NCBI RefSeq assembly: GCF_030013205.1
Contig: NZ_CP122648.1
DNA length: 64,000 nucleotides
Reading direction: 5' to 3' (one strand)
From: Escherichia coli
Lineage (GTDB): Bacteria; Pseudomonadota; Gammaproteobacteria; Enterobacterales; Enterobacteriaceae
A program made the translations under genes and the position numbers. Under the pieces are notes generated by a model, which was not told the origin of the DNA, did no database searches, and was given only the letters and a program-made list of their open reading frames with translations. Positions 38,999-56,080 of this stretch are shown here, piece after piece. The first letter of the stretch is position 1. Each line of letters opens with the position of its first letter.

Positions 38999-39050
38999 AA
39001 ATTCAATCACTTACACATCATTAAGTCAGTGACAAAAATCACACTTGGAA

Positions 39051-40076
39051 TTACTTGGAATATTTTCTTGGAATATTTTCAGGTAACGGGACATCAAGTG
39101 TTGGTGAAACTTTAACCTTTCTGTCATAGATTAGCACTTGCCCTTCGGTTTTGTGACCAGAGAAAAGTTGCTTATCCCGGCTGCTTCCTTCATAGTCTGA
39201 AATTCCTTTCGCCTTCAGATCATGAAAGGTGAAGTCGGTTAAAATACCTGAAATTTTGCCTGCGCGATTTCTTGCTTCTACCCACATTTCGTTAAAGCCT
39301 TTGTACATATATCGGTTGCCGTATTGATTGCTGATCACATAGGCAGATTTTGGTAACTGTTTTGCTTTTTCGATCGCTGCCTGTAATCGTGGACTCCATG
39401 CTTTTATCTGTTTTTTTCCGGTTTTCCCTTGCTGGATGAATATCCCGTCGTTTCCAATCTGTTCCCATTTCAGCGATAACACATCGGAAACCCTCGCTGC
39501 ACACAGATAGGCAATTTCCATTGCGATAAAAACAGGAAGAGGTGCAACGCTTAATACTGCCTGGTATTCTTTGTCGGTTACATATCGTTCGCGGTTTTTG
39601 GCCTTGAATTTACTTACACCTGCACATGGGTTAGCCTTCACGTACCCTCGCTCATACCCCCAACTGTAAACACGGGACATACGGCTTTTTTCATGGTTGG
39701 CTTGCGTTTTACTCTGCTCCCCTCTTTTGTCCATGTATCGACGGATGTGTTCTGGTTTTATGGAATCCGCTGGTACCTTACCGAATACGGCAAGCAACTT
39801 TTTTTGATGTTGCAGATAATCTTTTTGTGTTCTTGGACTAAGGTCACTGTAATAGGCGCTGGCGAGGAATTTTTCCCACAAGCGACCGAATGTCATTGCA
39901 CGATCGCGATTATTTACAGTTTCCTCATACTTTTTCCATAAAGCAGCCAAACCATCCTTGATGGCGGTTAGTGTGACAGATTCTCTGGATGTTGGTTTCC
40001 ATACATAACTATATTTATTTGGGTATACATTTGGAGGTAATTTTTCGTGTTCAGGATTTTTCCTTCGTCTTCCCAT
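39051..40076 (-). CDS. int: lambdoid phage tyrosine integrase
   Basis: 341 aa ORF adjacent to the tRNA-Ser 3' end; integrase-like C-terminal catalytic region. Confidence 0.85.
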   Translation of the reverse strand: MGRRRKNPEHEKLPPNVYPNKYSYVWKPTSRESVTLTAIKDGLAALWKKYEETVNNRDRAMTFGRLWEKFLASAYYSDLSPRTQKDYLQHQKKLLAVFGKVPADSIKPEHIRRYMDKRGEQSKTQANHEKSRMSRVYSWGYERGYVKANPCAGVSKFKAKNRERYVTDKEYQAVLSVAPLPVFIAMEIAYLCAARVSDVLSLKWEQIGNDGIFIQQGKTGKKQIKAWSPRLQAAIEKAKQLPKSAYVISNQYGNRYMYKGFNEMWVEARNRAGKISGILTDFTFHDLKAKGISDYEGSSRDKQLFSGHKTEGQVLIYDRKVKVSPTLDVPLPENIPRKYSK

Positions 40077-40279
40077 CAGATCGCACCAAAATTCGGCTCT
40101 ACCTCGCGTGGTGGTAAAGTTTTATTGCAGGTAAATAGATCCCGGCTGACAATCGGTTTGCCACTACGATTGGTATAGAACGGAAGCCCGTTTTCCATTA
40201 ACCATTTTCGCTGGTGGCTTGCATATTTGCAGCCCGTTAATATTAGCAATTCATCTTCGGTTAAAAATAAGCTGCTCAT
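40076..40279 (-). CDS. xis: excisionase-like protein
   Basis: 67 aa ORF overlapping the int start, in the expected xis position. Confidence 0.6.
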   Translation of the reverse strand: MSSLFLTEDELLILTGCKYASHQRKWLMENGLPFYTNRSGKPIVSRDLFTCNKTLPPREVEPNFGAI

Positions 40280-40337
40280 AGCTATATCTCATAACCGCCG
40301 CTAACTATATACGGTTAGCGGCAATTAGGGTTGAACA

Positions 40338-42779
40338 TTAAAAATCAGCCTGACTCGGGATCAGTTTTTGCCAGATAGCTGAAACGTATTTTGCCTGGTA
40401 ACGAGCGTCATCAAGTGCATTATGGCGCTCACCTTCGAATGGGATAGCAGTTCTGGCATCGAAGTCTATGGCTTTCCCCAGCTCAACGATTGTGCGTACA
40501 TCGCGATCGTTGCAGTAGCGCCACGGGCAGGGGATACCCTGTCGTTCGTATGAACGGCGTAAAATCACGTTGTCGAAGTTGGCCCCATTACCCCAGACCT
40601 GAACAAAAAATTCACCGGAGTTTTCGGCGATAAATTCCCGCAATTGCAGTAGTGCATCATCTAACGGGATTTCATCGGTCATAATGGCAGACTGCGCTTC
40701 ACGTGATTGCTTCAGCCACCATTTAATGACGTCACGATCAATGACTCCGCCAGCAGTATCCAGATCGATGGTCTTGCTAAATTCCGGTCCCATATCTCCG
40801 GTTTGTGGATCGAAAAATATTGCGCCTATTGAGATAATCGGGGCATCGGGATTTTTTCCCATGGTTTCAAGGTCGATCATCAGATGAATCCCCGCTCTGC
40901 TGGTGGATGTGAGCTTATGATGACCATTCACCTTAATTAAGGGATCTGTCGCCTCGCCAGTTTTATTATCGCTGGCGTGATGCTGATTGCCGCTAGGGTT
41001 CTCCTTGTGTGGATGTTCAGCGCCTTCCATTTCCTCCGGATCATTTTCCTGAACTTCAACCTGATTCTCTTCATCGAATGTTTCCTGGTATGTTGCGTCG
41101 CCCATCACCGCGCCACAATCAGGGCAGTTGCCGCCACCGCTCTGACCGCAGGCGGTGCAGACTTTTTCCGGTTCCTGTTGCGCTACTGGTTCGGATTGTT
41201 TCGTTTCTGGCTCGTTTTGTAACGCATTTGGGCTGTTTTGTTCCGCTTTTTGGTCGTTCCGTTCCGATTCATGCTGGTTCTGGTTCACAGAATCGCGAGT
41301 CTGGATCCCCTTGACCCATTTCGGATCATTAGGGTCGCTAATCCCCTCAACAAATTCACCACGCGATACAGCAAGTAACTTATCGGCGTCAGGCTGGCTG
41401 ATATTGGCTGCCTGCATAATTTTGTTTACTTCGTCAGCGGTGACTTTTACTTGGTTAGCGGAACTCACCTGCGACTGAGCATCCAGCGACTGCGCGTTCT
41501 GGCAATGTTCAGTTGTATCCGGTTCCATTGTTTCAGTTGTTGCCTGTTCACCTGCCATTGCGTCAGATGGTTGTGGTTTTTCTTCTTCTGTTTCACGCTC
41601 AGTAACCACCTCGCGGTTAATTTCTTCCAGGATATCTTTTTCCGGCGTATGCCGGGCAGCTGTGAGAGTTTCCTTGCTGGGGTTCTCGTGATCAGTTTCC
41701 GTCAAATAGGCGTTGATATACCCCTGAAGGCGTCCCGGGTAGTGATAAAATTCAGGGTGTGCGCTTCGGATAAGTGCAAAAATAGCGGCGCGGGAATAGT
41801 CCAGAACACCCGGGGTTGCACGAAGTGCTGCGGACCATTCTTTGAACGGACTTTCTTTTTTCAGGACTACTTCTTTTGCGCGACGATAAACGCTGCCGGG
41901 AATTTCATAAATATTAAAATCCATCGGAAGTGTGGCTGCTGCAATCTCCACATCCAGTGTGTCGAGGGTGTGTACTAAATTCGGATTGCGATCGGTTTTG
42001 TTCCCACCGCCAGCATTAGCACCGGAAGCCGTGCGGGTGATGCGTGAAACACGATTTCCTTTCATCCACTCTTTTGTCAGCAGACCCCGATCAGTGTAGT
42101 CAGCGTCCAGGTATGCTTCGAAAAAAGCAGTTATTAGTCCCAGGTATGAATTACCAGGATTAGGGAAAACTTTGTCAGTGTCACGAACCAGTTTGTGGAG
42201 GTCGCGAATCTCCAGCGAGTCGAGCAGACTGGTTTTATGCGAAATAGCCAGGGCAGTAACAGCCGGTAGTTCTTCAGCCCGTGCAATGTGTAATGCCTGG
42301 AGTTCGTCGCGTGAGACGTGCGTTACTGGTTTTTCGCTGCCGTGTTGAGCAAGCCAACGAATGGGCAGTTCCTGACCGGAGACAGGCAGAAGCATGCTCT
42401 CCTCAATCTCAGTCATGTCTTCGCCGTTGATGTTGGTATTGTCAGTGCTGGCTGGTTTGTCCTGAACAGAGGGGGAAGGGCCGATAAATGTCATTGTGAT
42501 GCCATCTTTCCCGCCTTTTTCATAGCGGTTGCAGAATTCAGTGTCAAACACGCCTTCTGGCGGAAGGTCGTCAACAACGGGCAAATTGACGCGGACGGGT
42601 TTTTTAAAGTCGTCTTCATCATAATCGTTGTCATCCATTGCGGTAATGCAGCGGGAGATTGCAACAGATAATTTTTTTGCTGTAGTCCAGTAAAAACCAC
42701 CTTTAATTCCCAGGCGTTTTCTTACTTTGTCATTTTTTGCTTCGCAATATAGTGCAAATTCTTCTTTATCAGTGCTCAT
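40338..42779 (-). CDS. prophage exonuclease with C-terminal DnaQ-like (DEDDh) 3'-5' exonuclease domain and internal CxxC...CxxC ribbon
   Basis: 813 aa; C-terminal motifs HLMIDLETMG...GNGANFDNVIL...HNALDDARY; proteins of this build are often annotated exodeoxyribonuclease VIII-like. Confidence 0.55.
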   Translation of the reverse strand: MSTDKEEFALYCEAKNDKVRKRLGIKGGFYWTTAKKLSVAISRCITAMDDNDYDEDDFKKPVRVNLPVVDDLPPEGVFDTEFCNRYEKGGKDGITMTFIGPSPSVQDKPASTDNTNINGEDMTEIEESMLLPVSGQELPIRWLAQHGSEKPVTHVSRDELQALHIARAEELPAVTALAISHKTSLLDSLEIRDLHKLVRDTDKVFPNPGNSYLGLITAFFEAYLDADYTDRGLLTKEWMKGNRVSRITRTASGANAGGGNKTDRNPNLVHTLDTLDVEIAAATLPMDFNIYEIPGSVYRRAKEVVLKKESPFKEWSAALRATPGVLDYSRAAIFALIRSAHPEFYHYPGRLQGYINAYLTETDHENPSKETLTAARHTPEKDILEEINREVVTERETEEEKPQPSDAMAGEQATTETMEPDTTEHCQNAQSLDAQSQVSSANQVKVTADEVNKIMQAANISQPDADKLLAVSRGEFVEGISDPNDPKWVKGIQTRDSVNQNQHESERNDQKAEQNSPNALQNEPETKQSEPVAQQEPEKVCTACGQSGGGNCPDCGAVMGDATYQETFDEENQVEVQENDPEEMEGAEHPHKENPSGNQHHASDNKTGEATDPLIKVNGHHKLTSTSRAGIHLMIDLETMGKNPDAPIISIGAIFFDPQTGDMGPEFSKTIDLDTAGGVIDRDVIKWWLKQSREAQSAIMTDEIPLDDALLQLREFIAENSGEFFVQVWGNGANFDNVILRRSYERQGIPCPWRYCNDRDVRTIVELGKAIDFDARTAIPFEGERHNALDDARYQAKYVSAIWQKLIPSQADF

Positions 42780-42987
42780 TATTGATAAACCTCATCACAG
42801 ATTTAAGGGTGAACAAATCTCTGCCATTGCTGACATATAAGAATGAAACTGGATATTTATTACGGTGCTGTTTTAAAATCCTGCCGGGATTTCGTTATCC
42901 TGGTGAATAACTTTATCGACCGGATAACAGTTGCCTGGAATTTTCTGTTCGGTTGCTGCGGCCATACATTCCGGTAATGACTCCAAC

Positions 42988-43491
42988 TTACTGATAGTGT
43001 TTTATGTTCAGATAATGCCCGATGACCTTGTCATGCAGCTCCACCGATTTTGAGAACGACAGTGACTTCCGTCCCAGCCTTGCCAGATGTTGTCTCAGAT
43101 TCAGGTTATGCCGCTCAATGCGCTGAGTATAACGCTTGCTGATAACGTGCAGCTTTCCCTTCAGGCGTGATTCATACAGCGGCCAGCCATCCGTCATCCA
43201 TACCACGACCTCAAAGGCCGACAGCAGGCTCAGAAGACGCTCCAGTGTGGCCAGAGTGCGTTCACCGAAGACGTGCGCCACAACCGTCCTCCGCATCCTG
43301 TCATACGCGTAAAACAGCCAGCGCTGACGTGATTTAGCACCGACGTAGCCCCACTGTTCGTCCATTTCAGCGCAGACAATCACATCACTGCCCGGTTGTA
43401 TGCGCGAGGTTACCGACTGCGGCCTGAGTTTTTTAAGTGGCGGAAAATCGTGTTGAGGCCAACGCCAATAATGCGTGCACTGGCGCGACAT
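42988..43491 (-). CDS. insB: IS1 transposase InsB
   Basis: Identical 167 aa product to the first copy. Confidence 0.9.
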
Positions 43492-43685
43492 CCGACGCCA
43501 TTCATGGCCATATCAATGATTTTCTGGTGCGTACCGGGCTGAGAGGCGGCGTAAGTGAACTGTAGTTGCCATGTTTTACGGCAGTGAGAGCAGAGATAGC
43601 GCTGATGTCCGGCGGTGCTTTTGCCGTTACGCACCACCCCGTCAGTAGCTGAACAGGAGGGACAGCTGATAGAAACAGAAGCCAC
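43410..43685 (-). CDS. insA: IS1 InsA
   Basis: Identical 91 aa product to the first copy. Confidence 0.9.
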
Positions 43686-43833
43686 TGGAGCACCTCAAAA
43701 ACACCATCATACACTAAATCAGTAAGTTGGCAGCATCACCTACATTCCTGCATTGTTCTGTGAACACTGACTGCAATATCAACTGACTCTCCGGAAACAA
43801 GAAAAACCGTCAGAATAAGTGCAAATACTGGAT

Positions 43834-44022
43834 TCATTGTGCACATCCTTTTGGCATCAGACGTAAACGGGCCAGCATTGAAACAATGCATACTTTATTT
43901 AATAACTCCCGTTCGTGTTTTCTTTTGTTAATGGCCTCTTCAGTGAATACAGGATTACTGATAGTGACACCAATTTCAAAACAACCTTCAGACGTATTAA
44001 CGTTTGGTAATAACGTTTTCAT
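43834..44022 (-). CDS. dicB: cell-division inhibitor DicB homolog
   Basis: Internal start MKTLLPNVNTSEGCFEIGVTISNPVFTEEAINKRKHERELLNKVCIVSMLARLRLMPKGCAQ (62 aa), closely matching the DicB I recall from Qin. Confidence 0.75.
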   Translation of the reverse strand: MKTLLPNVNTSEGCFEIGVTISNPVFTEEAINKRKHERELLNKVCIVSMLARLRLMPKGCAQ

Positions 44023-44196
44023 TATCGCGCCCTCAACAATGAGTTTTGTGATGCGGTGCCTGGTGCCTCCAGGTGACGTTAACCAGTTAACAATTAACGC
44101 CGGATACAGAGAATCCACCCATAACACTGTTTTGGGTTTTAACTGTTCCGCGTGCGCTTAGCCGCATTCACCGCATCACAAAATTCACTTTAAAAA

Positions 44197-44249
44197 TGGC
44201 GGCAGAGCAGTCACGGAGTAAAACTGATACCGCCAAACGTCACCAGAAA
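44197..44249 (-). ncRNA. dicF: DicF small RNA
   Basis: Reverse complement reads tttctggtgacgtttggcggtatcagttttactccgtgactgctctgccgcc, just upstream of dicB. Confidence 0.7.
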
Positions 44250-44793
44250 ATTGATAACAGAGGGCGTTGCAGCGGGGTTGTCACTTAAGCGTATGGTCAA
44301 CCTGACAACCCGGTGTCCTCAACGGGGAAGGAATAACCTCGCCATACTTACCGCCGCGCCATTTCGCGGAGTGCCACAACCGGAAGCGCACGGTCGACGA
44401 AAATTTAACGACAGGCTATCTATGAACCAGCTACCTCGCCGTGCGCTTTCGCGTTATGGTCTGACTTTTCAGGGAAATATCCTTTCAGTAAACTGTCAGT
44501 GCCGGATGTTCACCCGTGTCCGGCGCACGCACTCCACCTCACCCGTGGAGAACTCCTTAATTACCAACCCTCAGGAGGGTGAATGTTAAAATCAACTCTT
44601 ATTGCTAAATGCCTTTATCAAAATCGCATGGTAAGCAGCATTTCAATAGGCGAGTCTGCAGTTAAAAGTATTTTCGAAGAGTACTTCCCCGGGCATGATT
44701 TTAATAAATGGAATACCAAATTACCGCCAGCAGTTTCAACGCGTATTCTGAAATCAACTGAAAGAGCAAGTACAATTCGCGTTAACTATTTCA

Positions 44794-45201
44794 TTAAAGA
44801 TTTGTGGGATCTTTGATATCCACAGAGCCTAAAGTATGTGCATATGGATGTGCTATTGTGCGCCCTCGCAGATTTGCATCATTTTCTAAATTCACTGAAC
44901 GAAACAGGGCATCAACAAGGCTCTGTACAATGCAAAGGCAATCGAAGACTGTCGCTGTTTCTGTTTTGATTGATGAAAGAACATGGCCATTCACGCAAAC
45001 AGAAATTACCCGTTCATTAACATCGCTTTCCTGCTTTTGATTATCAGAACCATATAGCCCAGAAAAAGCATTGCGCACATTACGAACCATATTATCGATG
45101 GTTTCTTTTTTGGTGTATGCCGGGTCAATTTTCACCAGACTATCACCGAGAGTCGTTGCAGCAATTGTCTGGATTTCTTTTGGTAAATCTTTAAATTCCA
45201 T
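44794..45201 (-). CDS. hypothetical prophage protein (dic operon region)
   Basis: 135 aa ORF co-oriented with the dic operon; no family assignable. Confidence 0.4.
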   Translation of the reverse strand: MEFKDLPKEIQTIAATTLGDSLVKIDPAYTKKETIDNMVRNVRNAFSGLYGSDNQKQESDVNERVISVCVNGHVLSSIKTETATVFDCLCIVQSLVDALFRSVNLENDANLRGRTIAHPYAHTLGSVDIKDPTNL

Positions 45202-45223
45202 TATTAGCCTCGTTGGTTAGCTA

Positions 45224-45442
45224 TTAACGTGGGTATGTAATCATTCTGGCAATGCTTAATGCCGCTGCTTTTTCCAGATTGGTGATATCCTGCTCCAGAG
45301 CGGACAGATTTTCAGCCTGCTTAGCCCTGGCTTCATTGGCCCATTTCAGATCCTGCACTGCATTAATTTTCTGGCGCATCCACTTATAAAGTTCATCATC
45401 GGTATAGTCTGGCGCGATGATGACGGGTTCTCGTTTCTGCAT
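45224..45442 (-). CDS. hypothetical prophage protein (YdfB/YdfC-like position)
   Basis: 72 aa ORF in the dic operon. Confidence 0.4.
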   Translation of the reverse strand: MQKREPVIIAPDYTDDELYKWMRQKINAVQDLKWANEARAKQAENLSALEQDITNLEKAAALSIARMITYPR

Positions 45443-45601
45443 ACTGATTCCTCGCGGTGCTGTTTCGCTTATCAGCCGTTAGATTTTGCCGAACTGGAAA
45501 GCGCCTGTTTAAACTCACTGAAGCTGAGAGCTTCTTCGCCTTCGGCAAGTCCTTCGAAGTATTCTTCGTAAGCCTTTTCCATGATTGTGTCGAAATCCAT
45601 A

Positions 45602-45838
45602 TTACTCACCTGAGTTTCTTTCCAGCCAGCGACGCGCGCCAGATTCGGTTTTAAACGTTTTGCTTTTGGTATACGTCATCGCGGTGAACGTGCCGTCCTG
45701 GTTGGGAAACACGCCGTATACCAGAGATTCGTTGTTGCCAAGATCGATAGTATCCATGCTGACCTCATTTCCCCTTAACGCCGGGGTAGCGGAACAAAAA
45801 CCTGCTGCATAGTTATTAAAGTTGAACCCTGCCGTCAT
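45602..45838 (-). CDS. hypothetical prophage protein
   Basis: 78 aa ORF; a further ~47-codon ORF (MDFDTIMEKAYEEYFEGLAEGEE..., ~45460-45600, minus) lies just downstream. Confidence 0.4.
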   Translation of the reverse strand: MTAGFNFNNYAAGFCSATPALRGNEVSMDTIDLGNNESLVYGVFPNQDGTFTAMTYTKSKTFKTESGARRWLERNSGE

Positions 45839-46021
45839 GTTCTTACGCCTCGGGCTGGCTACTTAACCCCTGACCACTGCCTGGTAACTCGAAGTATTGC
45901 CCTGCATTCTGTGGGGCGGGGTGGGTTGGTATGAAAAGAAGGATACCCATAGGTATTTAAAAGTAAATACCCATGGGTAACTTTTTGCGGTGTCTTAACT
46001 GGTGACTAGTTGTTTGGTGAG

Positions 46022-46441
46022 CTATGATGCGTTTTGTGCTTTCTTTTTACGGATTTCTTCGTAGATCATATTGTAATACTGTTTTTTCTCTTCAAGAGTT
46101 TTTAATAAGTTATCCGCTTCACTTTCTGGCAGTTCGTCTAAGAGATCTAAAAAAATACGTTGTCGTGGCGTTAGAACCCTTGTTTCATAACTGGAGGCTG
46201 TGTTCGTTGATGATGAAACGATACCATCCATCCATCCCCGGGGTAACCCAAAGGACTCTTCGATAATCTCCACCATATCATCAGCGATCCGTTTTTTTCC
46301 CTTTTTCCCCTCTGGGTACAACATTCTTGATACATAAGAAGGCTCGCGCCCGATCTTTCTGGCCACGTTAACCGCTTTACCATCGCATTTCTCATCACGA
46401 ATTTTGATGAGTTGCTGTCGTCTAAATTCATATTTGTCCAT
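46022..46441 (-). CDS. prophage repressor (HTH; DicA/CI-like role)
   Basis: 139 aa with HTH AVNVARKIGREPSYVSRML; transcribed divergently from the cro-like gene. Confidence 0.6.
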   Translation of the reverse strand: MDKYEFRRQQLIKIRDEKCDGKAVNVARKIGREPSYVSRMLYPEGKKGKKRIADDMVEIIEESFGLPRGWMDGIVSSSTNTASSYETRVLTPRQRIFLDLLDELPESEADNLLKTLEEKKQYYNMIYEEIRKKKAQNAS

Positions 46442-46541
46442 AGGTAAATAATAGATGCGATTACCGCAAGGTAAACAACCTGTGGGTATTGACTTTTGTT
46501 TACCTGTGGGTATTCTTTACTGTGTTTACTAAGGAGTAGCT

Positions 46542-46823
46542 ATGGAAGAATTAAGAATATTTCTCAATTCTCTTTCGTCAGATGAACAGCGTATGTTTGC
46601 ATGCGAGTGTGGTACCAGCATCGGTTATCTAAGAAAGGCATTGAGTAAAGGTCAAGTGTTAGGGGCATCGTTATGCGTCCTTATTGAGCGAGCCAGTAAT
46701 GGTGAAGTTACACGTCAGCAACTAAGGCCTTTTGATTGGATGAATATTTGGCCCGAGCTGGAAGATACCAAAACGTTAACACAACCACTTTCTAGGAGCT
46801 TGATTCATGAAAATCAAGCATGA
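46542..46823 (+). CDS. Cro/DicC-like small regulator
   Basis: 93 aa ORF facing the repressor across a ~100 bp operator-like spacer. Confidence 0.5.
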   Translation: MEELRIFLNSLSSDEQRMFACECGTSIGYLRKALSKGQVLGASLCVLIERASNGEVTRQQLRPFDWMNIWPELEDTKTLTQPLSRSLIHENQA

Positions 46824-47232
46824 ACACATCCGCATGGCGATGAATGCCTGGGCGCATCCGGACGGTGAAAAAGTTCCGGCAGCTGAAATAACCAGGGCTT
46901 ATTTTGAACTGGGTATGACGTTCCCAGAACTGTATGACGACAGCCATCCGGAAGCCCTGGCTCGCAATACCCAGAAAATTTTCCGCTGGGTAGAGAAAGA
47001 CACCCCTGATGCAGTTGAAAAAATTCAGGCGTTGTTACCAGCGATCGAAAAGGCAATGCCACCTTTGCTGGTGGCCAGAATGCGCAGCCACAGTTCAGCT
47101 TATTTTCGGGAGCTGGTGGAGACGCGGGAGCGACTGGTGAGAGACGCTGATGATTTTGTCGCAGTGGCAATCGCCGGTTTCAATCAGATGAACCGTGGTG
47201 GCCCGGCAGGAAATGCTGTGGCAGTACATTGA
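46807..47232 (+). CDS. YdaT-like prophage protein
   Basis: 141 aa starting MKIKHEHI and ending ...VH, like Rac YdaT. Confidence 0.5.
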   Translation: MKIKHEHIRMAMNAWAHPDGEKVPAAEITRAYFELGMTFPELYDDSHPEALARNTQKIFRWVEKDTPDAVEKIQALLPAIEKAMPPLLVARMRSHSSAYFRELVETRERLVRDADDFVAVAIAGFNQMNRGGPAGNAVAVH

Positions 47233-47297
47233 CTGACAATAGCCATATCGAATCGCTTCCGGCAACTCGTGAGTAAAAAGATTCGGTATCAGAAGAG

Positions 47298-48374
47298 GTG
47301 AGTATGGCTAACGCCTGGCTCAGATTATGGCATGACATGCCAAATGACCCTAAGTGGCGAACAATTGCCAGGGTGTCAGGGCAGCCAATTGCAACAGTGA
47401 TGGCAGTGTATATCCACCTCCTGGTGAGCGCGTCACGAAATGTCACGCGAGGTCACATTGATGTCACGACAGAAGATTTGGCAAGTGCGCTCGACGTGAC
47501 AGAAGAGGTAATTGATTCAATTTTGCAGACGATGCAGGGGCGGGTACTTGATGGTGATTTAATCACTGGATGGGAAAAACGCCAGGTGCTTAAAGAGGAC
47601 AACGGCAATATTTCGCAAACCGCAAAATCTCCTGCAGAGCGCAAGAGGGCGCAGCGAGAGAGGGAAAGAAAGCGGGAACAAAATGGCGATTGTCACGGCG
47701 CGTCACGAAATGTCACGCACATGTCACGACGAGTCACGACAGATAAAGATACAGATAAAGATACAGATCAAGAAGATCAAAACACTATGGTCCATGGCGT
47801 AAAAAACGCCACGAACCGGGCAGGGGATGTTCAGACCGTCAATCTTGGTCAGCCAGCAGGCACGACACCGGAAGCCGATTCAGCGTATGCGCTGAAAGCC
47901 GATTCGGGCGCTGTGCAGCAGGTGATGACCGCAAGGCTGGAGCAATCACACCAACTGCAGCAGCCCGAAGCCGATTCCGCCATTCAGCGGGAAGCCGATC
48001 GGGTAGTCCCGGAAAACACCGGGCAGTCTGTGGGACGAGTGGATTATCCGGATGTGTTCGAACAGGTCTGGCGGGAGTACCCGTTGCGTGCCGGAGCAAA
48101 CCCGAAGAAATCCGCTTTCAGTGCCTGGAAGGCCAGATTACGCGAGGGGGTGCCACCAGAGGCCATGCTGGATGGCGTGAGGCGTTACGCAAGATACTTG
48201 GCGGCTACCGGGAAAACGGGAACGGAATTTGTTCAGCGAGCGACGACGTTTTTTGGACCGGACCGGAATTTTGAGAACCCCTGGTTGCTCCCGGTAAGCG
48301 GCACGAACAACCAGCGTTGTGTGAATCATATTTCTGAACCGGATAACGAAATTCCGCCGGGCTTCAGGGGGTAA
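47298..48374 (+). CDS. phage replication initiator-like protein with internal iteron clusters
   Basis: 358 aa; two clusters of GTCACG-type repeats inside the gene (~47425-47475, ~47690-47745), as in lambda O/ori. Confidence 0.5.
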   Translation: MSMANAWLRLWHDMPNDPKWRTIARVSGQPIATVMAVYIHLLVSASRNVTRGHIDVTTEDLASALDVTEEVIDSILQTMQGRVLDGDLITGWEKRQVLKEDNGNISQTAKSPAERKRAQRERERKREQNGDCHGASRNVTHMSRRVTTDKDTDKDTDQEDQNTMVHGVKNATNRAGDVQTVNLGQPAGTTPEADSAYALKADSGAVQQVMTARLEQSHQLQQPEADSAIQREADRVVPENTGQSVGRVDYPDVFEQVWREYPLRAGANPKKSAFSAWKARLREGVPPEAMLDGVRRYARYLAATGKTGTEFVQRATTFFGPDRNFENPWLLPVSGTNNQRCVNHISEPDNEIPPGFRG

Positions 48375-48414
48375 GTGTTAATTTCTGGTCATGAGGTAAT
48401 TTTCAGGAGGGCTT

Positions 48415-48837
48415 GTGGCAAAAGTTTTTACACAAGAAGAGCGGGAAAAAATTAAAGGACAGGTTGTTGAACTCGTACGCCAGAGTGGGCGTGAGACGTT
48501 ACGGCAACTGGAAGTCAAGACAGGTGCGACAAGATATCTGATGAGCGTTCTCGCAAGAGAGCTGGTTGCCAGCGGCGATGTATACAACTCTGGTTACGGG
48601 TTATTCCCGTCTGAACAGGCGCGTAAGGACTGGCAAAATGCCCGTAAAAAGCTCTCAAGGGCAAAGCTGAAGAAACCATCTGCGGTTGATCCGGACCTTA
48701 TCTGGTCATTACCTGACGGAGAAATACGTCGCTACGACAGGCGTCAGAACATAATCTGTCGCGAGTGCCGGAAGAGTGAAGTTATGCAGCGCATATTGTC
48801 GTTTTATCAGGGTGATGTTCGGTATTTATTGAAGTGA
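48415..48837 (+). CDS. hypothetical prophage protein
   Basis: 140 aa ORF following the replication gene. Confidence 0.4.
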   Translation: MAKVFTQEEREKIKGQVVELVRQSGRETLRQLEVKTGATRYLMSVLARELVASGDVYNSGYGLFPSEQARKDWQNARKKLSRAKLKKPSAVDPDLIWSLPDGEIRRYDRRQNIICRECRKSEVMQRILSFYQGDVRYLLK

Positions 48838-48983
48838 CGAGATTAAAGTGCATTAGTTCAGATGCAAATTGACATTTTGTGGCACAGGGTAGAGCTAGCG
48901 TGGTTGTCCGCTTTGTGCCAACAGCGGACATTATAGATGGTATATGTAGAAAGTGAACATGCGTAGATTGTATGATTTAGCCG

Positions 48984-49793
48984 TCACTTAATTATTGGAT
49001 AACTCACACAAGTATGACCGTTGCTTATCGCATACATTTGGTTTCCCTTAAGATTTACAAATGGAAATGTCGTATACTCATAATTTATAGAGGTCATATT
49101 AAATGTAAGGAATTTATCTTCAAGTTCTAATTTTGTAGAGTGGGCAGGGTATGTTCCTTCATTTTTCATTGTGATAATAAAACCGATAGGAAAAAAATGT
49201 AAAGCACAAATAAATGCCACATGTCCTTCGTTCATAAATGCTACACTTTGAGCGGATATGTGCATTCTGTGTGGGTAAAACCAGTAGTAAATATCATGAG
49301 TTTCCTCAAAACTTGAATTTTTACCCAAAACATAATCCTTTAAAGGTGTATAGAAGGGGCTATCTACGGGTTCTTTTTTACAATCTTCAACTGAAGTTGC
49401 TGATAGCACGTGCCCAATCATAGCCTTAGTGAAAGATATGCTATCAAAAGGTATTCTAATGAATGGATATACATTCATACCATTCATATATCGACTTAAC
49501 TGTTCTTTAAAGGACTTTGTTACATTTTCAATTGCAACATCGAGCCCACCTAATACCTTATTGTTACAGTGGCTGCAAATGGTTCTGAAATAAGAGCCAT
49601 TTTTAGCATTTAATGGTTTAACTGGTTCCTGAATACCAAAAAATTCGCTAACTGTTTTCTGCAAAACAGGGCCTAAGGTTATGGCGCACTTTGGAGGAAC
49701 ATGATCTTTTGTGAGCAAGCCATATTTCCCACAAATATTGCAATAACCTTCAGTAATGCCATTGTGCTTCCATCGTTCACTAATTTTCGTCAT
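48984..49793 (-). CDS. HNH-nuclease-domain protein with unknown C-terminal domain; candidate defense/abortive-infection cargo
   Basis: 269 aa; N-terminal HNH signature C18-x2-C21...D30-H31...N62/N65...C73-x2-C76-N-N-K; visibly AT-rich and opposite in orientation to the flanking prophage genes. Confidence 0.6.
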   Translation of the reverse strand: MTKISERWKHNGITEGYCNICGKYGLLTKDHVPPKCAITLGPVLQKTVSEFFGIQEPVKPLNAKNGSYFRTICSHCNNKVLGGLDVAIENVTKSFKEQLSRYMNGMNVYPFIRIPFDSISFTKAMIGHVLSATSVEDCKKEPVDSPFYTPLKDYVLGKNSSFEETHDIYYWFYPHRMHISAQSVAFMNEGHVAFICALHFFPIGFIITMKNEGTYPAHSTKLELEDKFLTFNMTSINYEYTTFPFVNLKGNQMYAISNGHTCVSYPIIK

Positions 49794-50116
49794 TTTTATT
49801 CCCTCAGTAGCATAAGCTATCTATACGTTTTTTAATCCTATCAAAGATACAACTTAACGTCAGGAAAATGATAGTGTTTATCTAAGTAATACAATTAACT
49901 TCAACGCGTGACAGTCTGCTTTTCGCTAAAAGCGGACTAGAAGGTTAGCTTGCGTCGGACTTGGCGTATTTAAAGAAGTGCTGGTGGTGACTGGTTGTTG
50001 TGTTCCATTTCTACAGAACAAAATCACAGAAACTATACCCAATAGTTGTATTGAATCACTGACGAGACAGCCTCATATTTATCAGGACTGGTGTACGTCC
50101 AATACAGGAGGTTGTG

Positions 50117-50206
50117 GTGCTGGTTCTCAAATGTGCGCTGGCTATTGCTGCTGTAATGGCAATTTATTGCCTTGCTGTTGTTCTTATGGATCGCCTTTCT
50201 GATTGA
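50117..50206 (+). CDS. candidate small hydrophobic peptide (29 aa), type I toxin-like
   Basis: AGGAGG 5 nt upstream of GTG; MLVLKCALAIAAVMAIYCLAVVLMDRLSD; below the ORF-track length cutoff, read by hand. Confidence 0.3.
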   Translation: MLVLKCALAIAAVMAIYCLAVVLMDRLSD

Positions 50207-50254
50207 TTTTATATTGGCGAGGTGACGTGAGTTAAGTAGAATTGCTGCGGGTGC

Positions 50255-50683
50255 TTGAGGCTATCTTCCTCTGATGTGTCAGGCATCCTCAACGCACCCG
50301 CACTTAACCCGCTTCGGCGGGTTTTGTTTTTTCCTGGCATTCTGGTTTACAATTCGCACGCCAGCCTGAACAACTGGCACCTGCTGCGCCAGCAGAGACA
50401 ACCGATGGCGCACGATACCAAATTACACAATTCTGATAATTCAGCCGTCTTTGCCAGCAGGCACGGGCGGCGCTCTCACGCATTTAAATCTGATTGGTAC
50501 CAGCATCCCCCATGTACTGAAGAACAAGCTGAATGGCTAATTCAGTGCTGCCGCAGACACGGATACGAGATTAAGAAAGCCCTCAGCCTCGATTATCGTC
50601 ACTGGATAATCTCCGTCAGGCTTCCTTACTCCGAACGCCCACCGCGTCCGTCCCGCACATTCCAGCAACGGATCTGGAGGTAA
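50255..50683 (+). CDS. hypothetical nin-region protein (possibly YbcN-like)
   Basis: 142 aa ORF upstream of the DUF968-like gene; start may be the internal Met (MAHDTKLHNSDN...). Confidence 0.4.
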   Translation: MRLSSSDVSGILNAPALNPLRRVLFFPGILVYNSHASLNNWHLLRQQRQPMAHDTKLHNSDNSAVFASRHGRRSHAFKSDWYQHPPCTEEQAEWLIQCCRRHGYEIKKALSLDYRHWIISVRLPYSERPPRPSRTFQQRIWR

Positions 50684-50684
50684 C

Positions 50685-51740
50685 GTGCGGGTATTACTTC
50701 GACCTGTTCCGGTACCGGAACTTGGGCTGGTGGTGCTAAAGCCGGGCCGTGAATCCATGCAGGTATTTCATAACCCTCGAGTGCTGGTGGAGCCGGAACC
50801 GAAAAGCATGCGCGGTCTGCCATCCGGGATTGTTCCTGCCGTTCGCCAGCCACTGATGGAAGATAAATCATTACTGCCATTTTTCAGCGACGAACGGGTG
50901 ATTCGTGCTGCTGGCGGCGCAGGCGCATTGTCTGACTGGCTCCTGCGTCATATTAAATCCTGCCAGTGGCCTCATGGTGACTACCATCACAGTGAAACCG
51001 TCATACATCGTTACGGTACTGGCGCGATGGTATTGTGCTGGCACTGTGACAACCAGCTGCGCGACCAGACATCAGAGTCACTCGGGCAACTTGCTCAACA
51101 AAACCTGTCAGCATGGATGATTGACGTCATCCGTCACGCAATGAATGGCACACAGGAGCGGGAATTATCGCTGGCTGAATTATCCTGGTGGGCGGTCCGC
51201 AATCAGGTGGCGGACGCGCTACCGGAAGCGGTATTACGTCGTTCGCTGGGGTTGCGTGCGGAAAAAATCCGCCCAATGTACCGTGAAAGCGACATCGTGC
51301 CGGGAGAGCAGACCGCCACCAGCATACTGAAGCAGCGCACAAAAAATCTTGCGCCGCTGCCTCACGCCCACCAGCAAAACCCGCCACAGGAAAAGACGGT
51401 GGTCAGCATTGCCGTTGATCCGGAGTCACCGGCTCAGTATCTCCAGCGCCAGAAACCACAACGGGAAGAGATGCCTGTATACACGCGTTGGGTAAAAACG
51501 CAGAAATGCATGACGTGCGGTAATCAGGCAGATGATCCGCATCACATCATTGGTCATGGACTGGGAGGGATGGGAACAAAGGCTGATGATTTGTTTGTTA
51601 TTCCGCTGTGCCGTAAATGTCATAACGAACTGCACGCCGGGGTAAAAGATTTTGAAGAAAAACACGGCAGCCAGCTGTTGTTGCTGATTCGTTTTTTAAT
51701 GCACGCGAGAAATTCGGGTGTCCTGAAGTGGAAAGCATGA
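50685..51740 (+). CDS. nin-region protein with C-terminal HNH-like zinc motif (DUF968-like)
   Basis: 351 aa; C-terminal CMTCGNQADDPHHIIGHGLGG...PLCRKCHNELH. Confidence 0.55.
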   Translation: MRVLLRPVPVPELGLVVLKPGRESMQVFHNPRVLVEPEPKSMRGLPSGIVPAVRQPLMEDKSLLPFFSDERVIRAAGGAGALSDWLLRHIKSCQWPHGDYHHSETVIHRYGTGAMVLCWHCDNQLRDQTSESLGQLAQQNLSAWMIDVIRHAMNGTQERELSLAELSWWAVRNQVADALPEAVLRRSLGLRAEKIRPMYRESDIVPGEQTATSILKQRTKNLAPLPHAHQQNPPQEKTVVSIAVDPESPAQYLQRQKPQREEMPVYTRWVKTQKCMTCGNQADDPHHIIGHGLGGMGTKADDLFVIPLCRKCHNELHAGVKDFEEKHGSQLLLLIRFLMHARNSGVLKWKA

Positions 51741-52106
51741 ATGACTGAACGCATAGAATTTGTTTTGCCTTACCCGCCGACGGTGAATACCTACTGGCGA
51801 CGTCATGGCAATACGTATTTCATCTCGGAAGCCGGAAAGCGTTATCGCCGTGATGTGGCGCTAATTGTTCGCCAGCAGCGGCTGAAATTAAGCCTGTCCG
51901 GAAGGCTGGCGATAAAGATTATTGCAGAGCCACCGGATAAGCGCCGCCGCGACCTGGACAATATCCTGAAGGCACCACTGGATGCGCTGACGCATGCCGG
52001 ACTACTTATAGACGACGAGCAGTTTGATGAAATCAATATTGTGCGCGGTCAGCTCGTTCCTGGTGGGCGGCTGGGGATAAAAATCACAGAACTGGAGTGC
52101 GCATGA
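51741..52106 (+). CDS. rusA: Holliday junction resolvase RusA
   Basis: 121 aa with RusA motifs ...PDKRRRDLDNILKAPLDAL...; directly upstream of Q. Confidence 0.85.
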   Translation: MTERIEFVLPYPPTVNTYWRRHGNTYFISEAGKRYRRDVALIVRQQRLKLSLSGRLAIKIIAEPPDKRRRDLDNILKAPLDALTHAGLLIDDEQFDEINIVRGQLVPGGRLGIKITELECA

Positions 52107-52771
52107 ATAACCAGTATTTACAGTTTGTGCGTGAGCAGCTCATTATCGCCACCGCTGATTTGAGTGGGGCAACAAAAGGTCAGCTTGAAGCCTGGCAAGA
52201 GAATGCCATGTTCGATACAGGGCGTTACAGGCGAAAAAAAATCCGGTACCGCGATGAAGTGACTGGAAAAATGATAACGCGGGATAATCCACCAATCCCG
52301 GGAAAGCAATCGCTGGCGAAGGGGACGTCAATTCCTCTGGTCAGTCCGGTTGAGTTTTCGACATCATCGTGGCGGCGGGCTGTTCTGTCTCTTGAAGAAC
52401 ATCATAAAGCCTGGTTGTTGTGGTGTTACAGCGGGAGTATTTGTTGGGAATATCAGATCGCGATAACACAGTGGGCGTGGAATGAATTTAATACTCAATC
52501 CGGTACCAGAAAAATTGCAGGGAAAACGCAGGAACGCCTGAAAAAATTAATCTGGCTGGCGGCGCAGGCAGTAAAAGCAGAACTTTTTGGTGGGGAAGGT
52601 TATGAATACCAGGAGCTGGCATTACTGGCGGGAGTGACAACTAAAAACTGGTCCAAAACATTTACTGGTCACTGGGTTGCAATGAAACACACTTTTCATC
52701 GGCTGGATAGTGAGGCTTTATTGTTCGTGACGAGAACACGTTCAAAACAAAAGGCGGCGTTTTCACTGTAA
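52097..52771 (+). CDS. late-gene antiterminator Q-like protein
   Basis: 224 aa ORF after rusA and before a strong terminator, the standard Q position. Confidence 0.55.
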   Translation: MRMNNQYLQFVREQLIIATADLSGATKGQLEAWQENAMFDTGRYRRKKIRYRDEVTGKMITRDNPPIPGKQSLAKGTSIPLVSPVEFSTSSWRRAVLSLEEHHKAWLLWCYSGSICWEYQIAITQWAWNEFNTQSGTRKIAGKTQERLKKLIWLAAQAVKAELFGGEGYEYQELALLAGVTTKNWSKTFTGHWVAMKHTFHRLDSEALLFVTRTRSKQKAAFSL

Positions 52772-52854
52772 AGTATTGCAAAAGTAGATTAAAAGGCATA
52801 TATTTCGTGCATATTTGATATTTTGCTGATTTTGTACGCGATGGCAAAGAATAT

Positions 52855-52882
52855 AAAACCCGCCTCCGAGCGGGTTTTTTTA
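52855..52882 (+). terminator. tR'-like rho-independent terminator of the late leader
   Basis: aaaacccgcctccgagcgggttttttt. Confidence 0.6.
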
Positions 52883-53296
52883 TGCCCGAAAAGCGGTACA
52901 TTAAACACGCTGGTGGTTGCGAATACTGGTCTTTCAGCTTGCTGGCTTTTTCGACAAGAGTTATTGGTATGTCACGTTAACCAGAACAGGGAAAAGGCAT
53001 GCTAAAACAGTAGGACATGGCCGAAACCGCCAGAGTGGTATTTAATGAATTAAGCATCACCGAACCGGCGACAGTCGGGGTATTGCGCAGAATACTTACC
53101 TTTCACGCGAACGCTGCCAGTTAATACGGACCCGGCTTGTGATGGTGGGTATGGCAGGTTATCCTTTTTATTTGTGGTAAATGGGCGGCTTGTGGGTGTT
53201 AGCGGCACCAGCCAGTCATTTGCTTATGTGTTGATGAGAATTTACCTCTTTGGGATATAATTGAGCTAACCTTTTGCTAATTAGAGTAAAATTATA

Positions 53297-54010
53297 ATGG
53301 CTGTTGTCTGTTCAGTTATCATGGTTTGCTCCCCAATTAATATTTTTCTTGAAAAGGATACGTTGTCACTTAAGCCCGGCTCAGTTGTTTTGGCCACCAA
53401 ATGCATCAGGGAGCTTTTCCTTATGCATTATGGCAAAGTTAAAATTGTCGATATAAACCATTCTATAGTAAGTCAATATCTGGAAAGTCAGCATAAGCTG
53501 ACAAGAACTCCTCTGACTGACATTCCGCTTTACTTGTCGCAGGAACCCAACAATCCTGCGTTGGCTGTGGCTTTAATTACCAGCCAGAGACTTTCCGGAG
53601 AGACCACGGACATGTTTCTTATGATGGCCTGCCTGTCGTTGTTTGAATCAGATGAACGGATGTTATTATTTTTAAGTGGATGTTTATCCAGTATAAGTGC
53701 CAAAGTCAGAGCGATAATTCAAACAGATATATCAGCAAGCTGGACGCTTGGTGCGATTGCTCTACAGTTGCATATGAGTGAGAGCTTGTTAAAGAAAAAA
53801 CTCAAGGATGAAGGTCTCAGGTTCAGTAATTTGTTACTTGAGGAACGGATGCGGGTTGCTGTAAATATGTTATGCTCCCGGCATGGATATGGACAGGCTG
53901 TAGCAGAAAAATGCGGTTATTCAAGTAGATCCTACTTTATCTCTGTATTTCACCGCTATTATGGCTTCCCGCCAGACAGATATGTATCTATGCAAGGGCT
54001 TGATTTTTGA
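53297..54010 (+). CDS. AraC-family transcriptional regulator (prophage moron)
   Basis: 237 aa, AT-rich, C-terminal AraC HTH (...GYSSRSYFISVFHRYYGFPPDRY); sits between Q and the lysis genes. Confidence 0.7.
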   Translation: MAVVCSVIMVCSPINIFLEKDTLSLKPGSVVLATKCIRELFLMHYGKVKIVDINHSIVSQYLESQHKLTRTPLTDIPLYLSQEPNNPALAVALITSQRLSGETTDMFLMMACLSLFESDERMLLFLSGCLSSISAKVRAIIQTDISASWTLGAIALQLHMSESLLKKKLKDEGLRFSNLLLEERMRVAVNMLCSRHGYGQAVAEKCGYSSRSYFISVFHRYYGFPPDRYVSMQGLDF

Positions 54011-54036
54011 TTTAATCTGATTATTATTTTCGGCCC

Positions 54037-54112
54037 GGCCCTTTAGCTCAGTGGTGAGAGCGAGCGACTCATAATCGCCAGGTCGCTGGTTCGAATCCAG
54101 CAAGGGCCACCA
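54037..54112 (+). tRNA. tRNA with CAU anticodon (ileX/ileZ-like Ile2 or Met)
   Basis: ggccctttagctcagtggtgagagcgagcgactCATaatcgccaggtcgctggttcgaatccagcaagggccacca. Confidence 0.7.
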
Positions 54113-54113
54113 A

Positions 54114-54190
54114 CCGCCACCAGTTCACCAAGAAAGAGTGTTAACCCTTTAAGTTGAGTGTGCGAGGTTCGAGTCCTCGGTGGCGGTCCA
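54114..54190 (+). tRNA. atypical tRNA-like gene (possible UUU anticodon; D-arm lacks GG)
   Basis: Acceptor ccgccac/gtggcgg, T-arm cgagg-ttcgagt-cctcg, 3' CCA; anticodon loop cctttaa has C at position 33. Confidence 0.4.
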
Positions 54191-54192
54191 GT

Positions 54193-54268
<76 letters not shown>

Positions 54269-54271
54269 TAT

Positions 54272-54346
<75 letters not shown>

Positions 54347-54608
54347 GCAGTAGACGATACCAGGTTGTTTTGGGCACTGACATATTATATGTGGGATGTT
54401 TTCCTGAATCTTTATCCACATCCTGTTCTGTAATACGTGATATCGGTTACAGTCCAGTGCTGTCTTTTTACAACAGCGTAATGGTGCATTATCGGTGGAG
54501 ATGTTGTATTTCCTGACAGGGCCGGTGATGCATCATTCCGATGTTGTTAACATCTATAAAAAACGTTGAGATTAATCACGTATTAAGCAAAACCTGGAAA
54601 TTCATCTT

Positions 54609-54635
54609 AACCGCCGTACCAGGCGGTTTTTTTTA
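54609..54635 (+). terminator. rho-independent terminator in the tRNA-to-lysis spacer
   Basis: ccgccgtaccaggcgg followed by TTTTTTTT; a second hairpin gggccgctggtggccc plus T-run lies at ~54762-54786. Confidence 0.55.
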
Positions 54636-54804
54636 TTCAGTTTCTTCATGGCTCGCTACTGCGGGCCTTTTTCATTTCTTCGCCCTGCTCAGCGTATGTC
54701 AAATCTGAATACACCACACAAAAGGTATCTGCGGGTGCCTTTGACGGGGTGTTGTTTTTTACGGGCCGCTGGTGGCCCTTTTTTATTTACAGGAGAAAAA
54801 AAGT

Positions 54805-55197
54805 ATGTCTGAACCCTTATCCGGTTCCGGCACGGCGGCTGCGCTCGGAGGGGCGACGGTATTCGGGCTGTTCACCGGAACGGATTTCGGGATTGTGTTT
54901 GGTGCGTTCGCGGGGGCGTTGTTTGTGGCAACGATGCCGCAGGCGCTTTCTGTCTGGCGGGTGGCGGCGCATTTTCTGGTGTCGTTTATTATCGGCGTAC
55001 TGGGGGCGGATGTGATGGCGTCTTATCTGGTCGAAAAACTGGGGCTTCACAGTAAATCTGTCGACGCGCTGTGTGCAGTGCTGGTGTCTGTGGTGTCGGT
55101 GAAGATTCTGTCGTTCATCCACCAGCAGGATATCGCATCGCTGGTGTCAGGACTGTTCTCCCGCCTGCGAGGCGGAGGAGGCGGTAATGTTAAGTAA
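54805..55197 (+). CDS. putative holin / lysis membrane protein
   Basis: ORF 54772-55197; start ATG 54805 after AGGAG; Gly/Ala-rich TM segments; first gene of the lysis cluster. Confidence 0.5.
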   Translation: MSEPLSGSGTAAALGGATVFGLFTGTDFGIVFGAFAGALFVATMPQALSVWRVAAHFLVSFIIGVLGADVMASYLVEKLGLHSKSVDALCAVLVSVVSVKILSFIHQQDIASLVSGLFSRLRGGGGGNVK

Positions 55198-55462
55198 CCT
55201 TCCCGGATTACTGAATGTGGCGTTATGCACGGTTATCGTGCTGACGCTCTTTTTTTATCGTCGTCGCGATTCCAGGCATAAACCGCTGATGTCATGGCTG
55301 GCCTGGCTGCTGATGCTGCTGTATGCCTTTGCGCCCCTCAGCTATCTGTGTGGTCGCCCGTTAGCAACGGGCTGGCTGGATGTGTTTTTTAATCTGCTGT
55401 TCTGCGTGCTGGTGATACGCGCACGCGGGAGCGTCACAAGAATCTTTCCATTGTTGAGGTGA
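55187..55462 (+). CDS. small lysis-cassette membrane protein
   Basis: 91 aa hydrophobic ORF overlapping both neighbours. Confidence 0.4.
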   Translation: MLSNLPGLLNVALCTVIVLTLFFYRRRDSRHKPLMSWLAWLLMLLYAFAPLSYLCGRPLATGWLDVFFNLLFCVLVIRARGSVTRIFPLLR

Positions 55463-55842
55463 ATATGTCGGGTAAATTCAGATTCAGCCGCCGGAGCGAG
55501 AAAAATCTGGAAGGCGTCAAACCACAGCTGGTTGCTGTAGTTCGCCGCGCCCTTGAACTGTCGGAGGTTGATTTCGGTATTACGGAGGGCCTGCGCACGA
55601 AAGAACGCCAGAAACAGCTGGTTGCAGAAGGTAAGAGCCAGACCATGAACAGCCGCCACCTGACCGGTGATGCGGTGGATGTTGTGGCCTGGGTTGGCAG
55701 CCAGGTGTCATGGGACTGGCCTCTGTACGAGAAAATCGCGCAGGCATTTAAGCAGGCTGCCGCAGAGCTGGGAACTGCCATCGAATGGGGCGGGGACTGC
55801 AAAACGCTGAAAGACGGACCTCACTTTCAGTTGAAGCGCTGA
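55459..55842 (+). CDS. endolysin, peptidase M15 (VanY-like) family
   Basis: 127 aa with SRHLTGDAVDV...DGPHFQL metallopeptidase motifs. Confidence 0.75.
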   Translation: MNMSGKFRFSRRSEKNLEGVKPQLVAVVRRALELSEVDFGITEGLRTKERQKQLVAEGKSQTMNSRHLTGDAVDVVAWVGSQVSWDWPLYEKIAQAFKQAAAELGTAIEWGGDCKTLKDGPHFQLKR

Positions 55843-55856
55843 TAATCAGGTGTGTT

Positions 55857-56039
55857 ATGAGCAGAAAACACTGGACACACAGAATGCCGCGAACGGCGGC
55901 GAAATGGGCACTGGTAGCGATACTGGTGCCTTTTTTATTGGCGGGATGCGTCAGCCTGGATAGGGCGCGTCAGCTTTTGGATGCTGCCTCTCAGGTCTGT
56001 GAAATTGTCAATGGTGTCCGGCAGTGTATGCAGAACTGA
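55857..56039 (+). CDS. lipoprotein spanin-like (Rz1/o-spanin-like)
   Basis: Start at MSRKHWTHRM...; signal peptide with lipobox LLAGC; follows the endolysin. Confidence 0.5.
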   Translation: MSRKHWTHRMPRTAAKWALVAILVPFLLAGCVSLDRARQLLDAASQVCEIVNGVRQCMQN

Positions 56040-56080
56040 ACGACGGTGAGAGCAGAATATTTTTAGTGGAGCGAAGTTCT

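Follow-up and report, generated by a model that had tools for sequence, protein, structure and literature searches.

Experiments have established lambda ori and SPP1 oriL as origins that lie inside initiator genes and combine repeats with an AT-rich element (PMC6022878, PMC7466680, PMC5737612). Lambda ori consists of four 18-bp dyad iterons and a 39-bp high-AT region that is sensitive to unwinding, and ori, but not O function, is lost when 12 or 15 bp of this region are deleted in frame (PMC6022878, PMC7466680). SPP1 oriL lies inside gene 38, comprises AB boxes and an AT-rich unwinding element, and suffices for replication in vitro (PMC5737612). An active origin, oriJ, has also been reported for the Rac prophage (PMC3945230). 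Here, we analyzed a 64-kb stretch of Escherichia coli DNA (the window) in which the initiator gene of a defective Rac/Qin-like prophage carries two clusters of GTCACG repeats. Sequence comparisons make it quite probable that the two clusters are iterons of a replication origin located in the prophage's own initiator gene. In the searchable literature on oriJ, ydaU, replisome organizers, and GTCACG iterons, we found no description of these repeats.

The initiator gene and its prophage

Positions 27249 to 64000 of the window were 99.99% identical to the chromosome of E. coli K_EC180, and the extent of the prophage was taken from this identity. In K_EC180, the prophage runs from tRNA-Ser to the gene for the terminase large subunit, with zinT directly after it. 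By the same identity, the integrase is frameshifted; together with an IS1 insertion, this marks the prophage as a defective ~20-kb remnant. The prophage also carries the DicF RNA (44197-44248, minus strand) and a cluster of three tRNAs (54037-54343). The features discussed below are as follows, with positions in the window.

38909-58800: prophage of ~20 kb at tRNA-Ser, delimited by identity to K_EC180
42973-43740: IS1 insertion in the prophage
46489-46516, plus strand: promoter-like site 5' of the cro-like gene (consensus scan, 9/12 matches)
47304-48374, plus strand: initiator gene, 356 aa, from the list of open reading frames
47304-47690, plus strand: region coding for the N-terminal domain (aa 1-129), a predicted winged helix that travels with the repeats
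47429-47471, plus strand: repeat cluster 1, four direct units (GTCACG at 47432, 47442, and 47463; GTCACA at 47452)
47495-47500, minus strand: inverted unit, CGTGAC on the plus strand, 27 bp downstream of cluster 1
47689-47741, plus strand: repeat cluster 2, five direct GTCACG units (47692, 47702, 47712, 47723, and 47733)
47739-47786, plus strand: A-rich, purine-skewed AT-rich tract, two copies of ACAGATAAAGAT (47739-47762) and then ACAGATCAAGAAGATCAAAACACT
47766-47769 and 47775-47778: two GATC sites in the AT-rich tract
47761-47779, no strand assigned: mosaic junction, up to which only or beyond which only E. coli relatives match
47789-47817, no strand assigned: imperfect inverted repeat with a 12-bp stem directly after the tract, with a terminator-like match on the minus strand
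48297-48371, plus strand: region coding for a DnaT-like tail, the C-terminal 25 aa (VN.VSEPD..IPPGFRG)

The initiator gene stands where ydaU would be expected in an early-right operon of the Rac/Qin-like type. Genes for YdaS/Cro-like and YdaT-like proteins and, divergently oriented, a repressor-like gene (46022-46441) lie 5' of it, and a DUF977/LygF gene lies 3'; no P gene, DnaC-like loader gene, or DnaB helicase gene follows it in this prophage. Its product matched PHROG 3729 ("replication initiation protein") from end to end (E = 1e-256), and its two halves separately matched other replication PHROGs; no Pfam match exceeded threshold. RefSeq labels the product either as a hypothetical protein or as a "phage replisome organizer," the name that NCBI also gives to close relatives. 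The same gene is present in sequenced phages (e.g., Tritos and Evi), and of 5426 complete E. coli genomes, 1646 contained 80% or more of the queried stretch (window positions 47250-48420, i.e., the initiator gene and its edges).

The promoter-like site at 46489-46516 is weakly suggested as a candidate rightward early promoter, from which the transcript would run through the repeats; the number of promoter-like sites in the scan was not above that in shuffled sequences. A perfect DnaA box (TTTTACACA, 48426-48434), the only one in the scanned stretch, lies ~690 bp beyond cluster 2, where the DUF977 gene begins. We rejected it as a part of an origin, its occurrence being within chance expectation (~0.09 expected in the scanned stretch).

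A structure model of the N-terminal domain suggested a winged helix, most similar to the DnaD N-terminal domain. The Pfam profile Phage_rep_org_N (PF09681) aligned with the domain over profile positions 1 to 118 of 121, though below threshold (score, 12.8 bits; cutoff, 23.3 bits; E = 0.12), and an hhalign comparison with SPP1 G38P was negative (probability, 0.2). At the other end of the protein, BLASTP aligned the tail with the extreme C terminus of MG1655 DnaT (15/25 identities, both ending in IPPGFRG), and the tail also matched DnaT PDB chains 6aep, 2ru8, and 9zbt. The NCBIfam DnaT equivalog scored 19.4 bits against a cutoff of 201 (E = 6.6e-4), with only the last ~25 residues matching. Rac YdaU has the same DnaT-like tail, and in the Aeromonas homologue described below, the end is a shorter PPGF. 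The prevailing view is that DnaT recruits DnaB/DnaC, in a way that has yet to be explained (PMC13377028). From this resemblance, the initiator tail may mimic a partner contact of DnaT.

GTCACG clusters and the sequence around them

The initiator gene contains nine perfect GTCACG units and one GTCACA, arranged in two clusters. Spacing analysis bore out an earlier note on this DNA, which had described two closely spaced GTCACG clusters inside a replication gene: successive units are 10, 10, and 11 bp apart in cluster 1 and 10, 10, 11, and 10 bp apart in cluster 2, so that in both clusters the spacing (10 or 11 bp) corresponds to one helical turn. The distance between the clusters, put at ~270 bp in that note, came out close to this, at 260 bp from start to start. 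Cluster 2 corresponds to nucleotides 389-435 of the gene, and an identical 19-nt string, GCGTCACGAAATGTCACGC, is common to both clusters.

Across the window, GTCACG occurred 41 times on the two strands, compared with 25.4 ± 5.4 times in dinucleotide-preserving shuffles, which never reached the observed count. Nine of the 41 copies fall within 47432-47738 (310 bp). GTCACG was the only 6-mer in the window with at least four copies inside 52 nt, and no further GTCACG cluster was found elsewhere in the window. Sequences flanking the 6-bp core showed only a weak preference (T at position −1 in 20/34 units); a 6-bp core is short for a specific protein site, and this counts against the origin reading.

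The AT-rich tract encodes DKDTDKDTDQEDQNT. The low-complexity DKDTDKDTD linker that the earlier note placed between the clusters is encoded here, directly downstream of cluster 2 (from 47739). The lowest-GC 40-nt window of the gene (GC, 0.25) begins 5 nt past the final cluster 2 unit; over 60 nt, the GC content of the tract is 0.37, and the AT skew in the minimum-GC 40-mer is ~0.5. The tract is a predicted DNA-unwinding element. When 17 initiator genes, lambda O included, were compared, the lowest-GC 40-mer began no more than ~20 nt from the end of cluster 2 in 14; in Rac ydaU, it began 35 nt after the repeats.

The junction at 47761-47779 was located from database matches: match H15 ends at query position 512, and matches H12 to H14 start at query position 530. 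On its 5' side lie the N-terminal domain, the repeats, and the tract, and on its 3' side lies the C-terminal half of the gene. Conservation in the alignment of homologues likewise falls off directly beyond cluster 2. Sequence related to the inverted repeat at 47789-47817 is also carried by viral locus L091. Farther downstream (47868-47999), an in-frame 36-nt duplication has given rise to four copies of AAGCCGAT, which encode [EK]AD[SR] in a linker within the C-terminal half; in contrast to the GTCACG units, all four copies share one codon phase and so may represent a peptide motif.

At the protein level, cluster 1 codes for aa 43-56, where a helix of the N-terminal domain ends and gives way to a loop, and the interdomain linker comes from cluster 2 together with the tract. 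Loops of variable length occur at these places, and the repeats are thus located where the protein tolerates variation. The peptide of the cluster 1 loop (…NVT…, …NAT…, or …ERGRT…) varies in step with the repeat word.

Repeats in homologous initiator genes

The GTCACG units are spread over all three codon phases (3, 1, 2, and 1 in cluster 1; 2, 3, 1, 3, and 1 in cluster 2; 3 for the inverted unit), the hexamer being read as SR, VT, or xHx depending on phase, and they are therefore not a peptide repeat. A first viral-contig scan with the N-terminal domain returned 80 loci (L004 to L083), which we left out of the conservation tests because their N-terminal domains are 99 to 100% identical and hence uninformative on this point. 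Among these near-identical contigs, the number of copies of the 12-bp unit ACAGATAAAGAT (DKDT) ranged from 2 to at least 5; unlike this adjoining unit of the tract, the GTCACG units were almost invariant.

Genes of Pseudomonas phage phita81A and Aeromonas phage pAEv1818 are ~70% identical in DNA sequence to the initiator gene over the N-terminal half. Both have GTCACG at matching gene positions (nt 129/139/149/160 and nt ~388-418). Each also has an inverted copy, at nt 192 or 202: the Pseudomonas copy is at the matching gene position, and the Aeromonas copy is 10 nt further on. As synonymous sites, we scored the third position of every codon, among the first 128 ungapped ones, that specifies one and the same amino acid in the three genes. 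Inside the hexamers, 9 of 10 such sites were identical in E. coli, Pseudomonas, and Aeromonas, compared with 9 of 63 outside them (Fisher P = 4e-6); with all positions counted, 27/30 were identical in the three genera inside the hexamers and 182/354 outside. The peptides encoded by cluster 2 differ among the three genera (CHGASRNVTHMSRRVTT, DDVTQCHAESRNVT, and ACHDASRNVT), and 3 to 5 GTCACG units at 10-bp spacing persist despite the changed peptide. These comparisons indicate that the GTCACG repeats are under selection at the DNA level. The earlier note had named a lack of conservation in homologous initiator genes as an outcome that would speak against its origin reading; instead, the repeats recur at matching positions in the Pseudomonas and Aeromonas homologues.

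More distant homologues (35 to 55% amino acid identity) were collected by tblastn against GenBank phages and by a viral-contig scan seeded with Ralstonia phage Firinga. They showed the two-cluster layout at matching gene positions, nt ~130-165 and ~400-440, with changed words. The Firinga group has GCAACG at nt 130/140/151/161/182, together with inverted copies, and again at nt 401/411/421/431. The word was GTGACG in L107, L108, and L110; GTAACG in L105 and ctOK67; CGAACGC in ct2G2228; and GTCAC in L109 and MACPNOA1, the general form being G-Y-N-A-C-G(C). Cluster 1 is missing and only cluster 2 is present in Cy-LDV1, MACPNOA1, L109, and ctOK67. Cluster 2 was found in every homologue examined at the DNA level except Mwe-JY25, a short gene with no obvious repeats. 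Units of the words GTGACG and GTAACG, which in one reading phase give the stop codons TGA and TAA, respectively, occupied codon phases 1 and 2 only (e.g., L107 and L110, gene nt 130-490), and these phase-restricted units alternate between 10- and 11-bp spacings. Two units at such spacings amount to 21 nt, or 7 codons, which fits the observation that the extra units in L092 and P0160 are loop insertions of 7 aa.

At E ≤ 1e-3, an exhaustive HMMER search with the N-terminal domain retrieved 6175 proteins that each represent one 50%-identity cluster (2919 at E ≤ 1e-10), and most of the best 150 matches covered only query residues ~1 to 160. Concordant peptide imprints of a word were seen in both segments in 122 of the listed representatives (for example, ASRNVTRGH with CH..SRNVT.DKDKD, and ASNATERGRTQ with NATERNRT..PDKDTDKD), nearly always followed by a linker rich in D, K, T, or E. 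Upon back-translation, a word was compatible at least 3 times with both segments in 108 of the 122 proteins, compared with 20% after shuffling, a statistic that is noisy because RERE-rich linkers inflate the counts; with a threshold of at least 2 compatible sites per segment, real and shuffled proteins were not separable.

Exchange of modules between phages bears on what the word depends on. L092 has the same N-terminal half as the gene studied here (87% nucleotide identity) and GTCACG in both clusters, with cluster 1 grown to six units; its C-terminal half is a different one and adjoins a lambda-P-like gene. L091 has an unrelated N-terminal half, and its own word, AAGGGGCT, likewise forms two clusters (nt ~185-215 and ~440-480); directly after these repeats comes a purine tract, joined to the same C-terminal half as here and then to a DnaC-like gene. 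The gene after the initiator encodes a DnaC-like loader in the Aeromonas phage and a DnaB helicase in Firinga and Cy-LDV1. On these sequence comparisons, the repeat word goes with the N-terminal domain and not with the neighboring genes or the C-terminal half. Unrelated initiator N-modules with their own repeat words occupied the same operon slot at two loci:

L091, 1981-3096
L090, 2620-3477 (Rac ydaU)

A candidate origin and its known counterparts

The conserved positions, the synonymous sites, and the lambda-like layout support the earlier note's reading of an iteron-like origin inside the replication gene. The defective state of the prophage, the homologues that lack cluster 1 or (Mwe-JY25) any obvious repeats, and the difference of the units from the palindromic 18-mers of lambda weigh against it. 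We propose that cluster 2 and the tract would form the core origin and that cluster 1, absent from some distant homologues, would be an accessory site. Derepression of the prophage would lead to rightward early transcription and to production of the 356-aa initiator. The N-terminal winged-helix domain would then bind one short unit (the GTCACG core) per helical turn, such that protomers could align on one face of the DNA; cluster 2 would take up five protomers, and cluster 1, located 260 bp upstream, would take up four or five. The nucleoprotein complex formed in this way, which might bridge the clusters, would destabilize the A-rich tract abutting cluster 2; the tract would be the counterpart of the lambda high-AT region, and cluster 2 would be the counterpart of the lambda iterons. 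Finally, the C-terminal half would bring in the host helicase machinery, and phages would swap this half depending on which partner is encoded downstream (none, DnaC-like, or lambda P-like).

Plasmid iterons serve control as well as origin functions. By analogy, the clusters could act as a looped bipartite origin that also has a control function, although this is a long shot. It is also unlikely that the repeats bind the initiator solely for autoregulation, copy control, handcuffing, or a transcription roadblock while the true origin lies elsewhere. That cluster 1 has no adjoining AT-rich tract and is dispensable in some homologues would suit such a role, as would the plasmid precedent; cluster 2, however, abuts the purine-skewed tract of lowest GC in the gene, at the position of lambda ori, and the window holds no other GTCACG cluster. 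Somewhat less improbable than this, though again a long shot, is the idea that nucleotide changes at the overprinted cluster 1 alter both the site and part of the protein that would read it, which could amount to a switch in origin specificity.

We consider it very unlikely that the repeats are sites for another factor, such as the phage repressor, Cro, YdaT, or a host protein. A promoter-like match on the minus strand does overlap cluster 2 (47716-47689), but such matches were not above shuffled levels, GTCACG is kept in Pseudomonas and Aeromonas phages whose annotated neighbors differ, and the word changes with the class of N-terminal domain. The least probable reading, that the repeats derive from protein-level repetition, slippage or recombination scars, or chance and have no function as DNA, would draw on the low-complexity linker, the slipping copy number of the 12-bp unit, and the adjoining mosaic junctions, but it is largely refuted by the three codon phases and the conservation of synonymous sites in the hexamers (P = 4e-6), as well as by a cluster 2 peptide that changes while the hexamers stay and a motif count that shuffles never reach.

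The origin reading would provide a concrete candidate origin for a prophage replication module, with an N-terminal domain whose family comprises thousands of 50%-identity clusters in metagenomes. Repeat words linked to the N-terminal domain would be natural specificity variants, of use for studying how short sites spaced by one turn are read and for building orthogonal phage-derived replicons. No general concept is changed by the finding.

This locus resembles SPP1 oriL in that a non-AAA+ initiator, or replisome organizer, is encoded by the gene in which the candidate origin lies and in that repeated boxes, to which the encoded protein binds in SPP1, are combined with an adjacent AT-rich element. 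The initiator has no demonstrable sequence relation to G38P, however, and the repeat sequences and the host machinery differ. Plasmid iteron origins of the RepA/pi-type Rep kind likewise place direct repeats beside an AT-rich element and use a winged-helix initiator, a fold that is predicted here. Plasmid iterons measure ~17 to 22 bp, recur at about two helical turns, are mostly found outside the rep gene, and often have DnaA boxes beside them, whereas the units described here are one turn apart and inside the gene.

Rac shares the operon slot (racR-ydaS-ydaT-initiator), and ydaU has repeats of its own, three copies of ATGTTCAAAC and an inverted copy; only one cluster is evident, and the word differs from GTCACG. 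About 20 nt after these repeats comes nearly the same tract as here, AATAAAGATACAGATAAAGATC (NKDTDKD). The YdaU N-terminal domain is a DUF1376 domain (E = 3e-26), of which no match was found in our initiator; in BLASTP, the two proteins had only the tail and the linker in common, and a DnaC-like gene, ydaV, follows ydaU, unlike here. Since L091 and Rac ydaU each have their own repeats followed by a purine- or AT-rich tract, the design recurs across nonhomologous initiators.

Lambda, like the O genes of Stx phages and other lambdoid phages, offers a close parallel in layout. The repeats are internal to the initiator gene in both cases and fall where its N- and C-terminal halves meet. In lambda O, four annotated iterons (gene nt 349-433) are followed by ACACAAAAGACACTATTACAAAAGAAAAAAGAAAAG, which encodes DTKDTITKEKRKD; iterons and tract together span nt 349-480, compared with nt 389-487 for cluster 2 and the tract here. 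An A-rich, purine-skewed tract adjoins the repeats in both and encodes a D/K/T-rich linker (DTKDTITKEKRKD in lambda; DKDTDKDTDQEDQ here), and mosaic or recombination junctions come just after the tract, the annotated lambda recombination points lying just past its AT-rich tract. The N-terminal half binds DNA and the C-terminal half contacts the helicase loader in lambda, a division of labor that, by analogy, we infer for the initiator described here. The earlier note's likening of the locus to lambda ori thus holds for cluster 2 and the tract; lambda ori has one cluster, and cluster 1, 260 bp upstream in the region coding for the N-terminal domain, has no match there. The initiator, moreover, is not a lambda O homologue (no Pfam Phage_rep_O match at E values up to 10), no P gene follows it, and, unlike the 18-bp dyad iterons of lambda, its units of 10 to 11 bp have an asymmetric, nonpalindromic GTCACG core. 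If these repeats are an origin, the lambda design, in which the linker region of the initiator gene holds iterons and an unwinding tract and modules recombine just after it, would extend beyond detectable lambda O homologues; the design, that of lambda ori or SPP1 oriL, would occur here in a different initiator family, with short, asymmetric units spaced by one turn and an extra upstream cluster.
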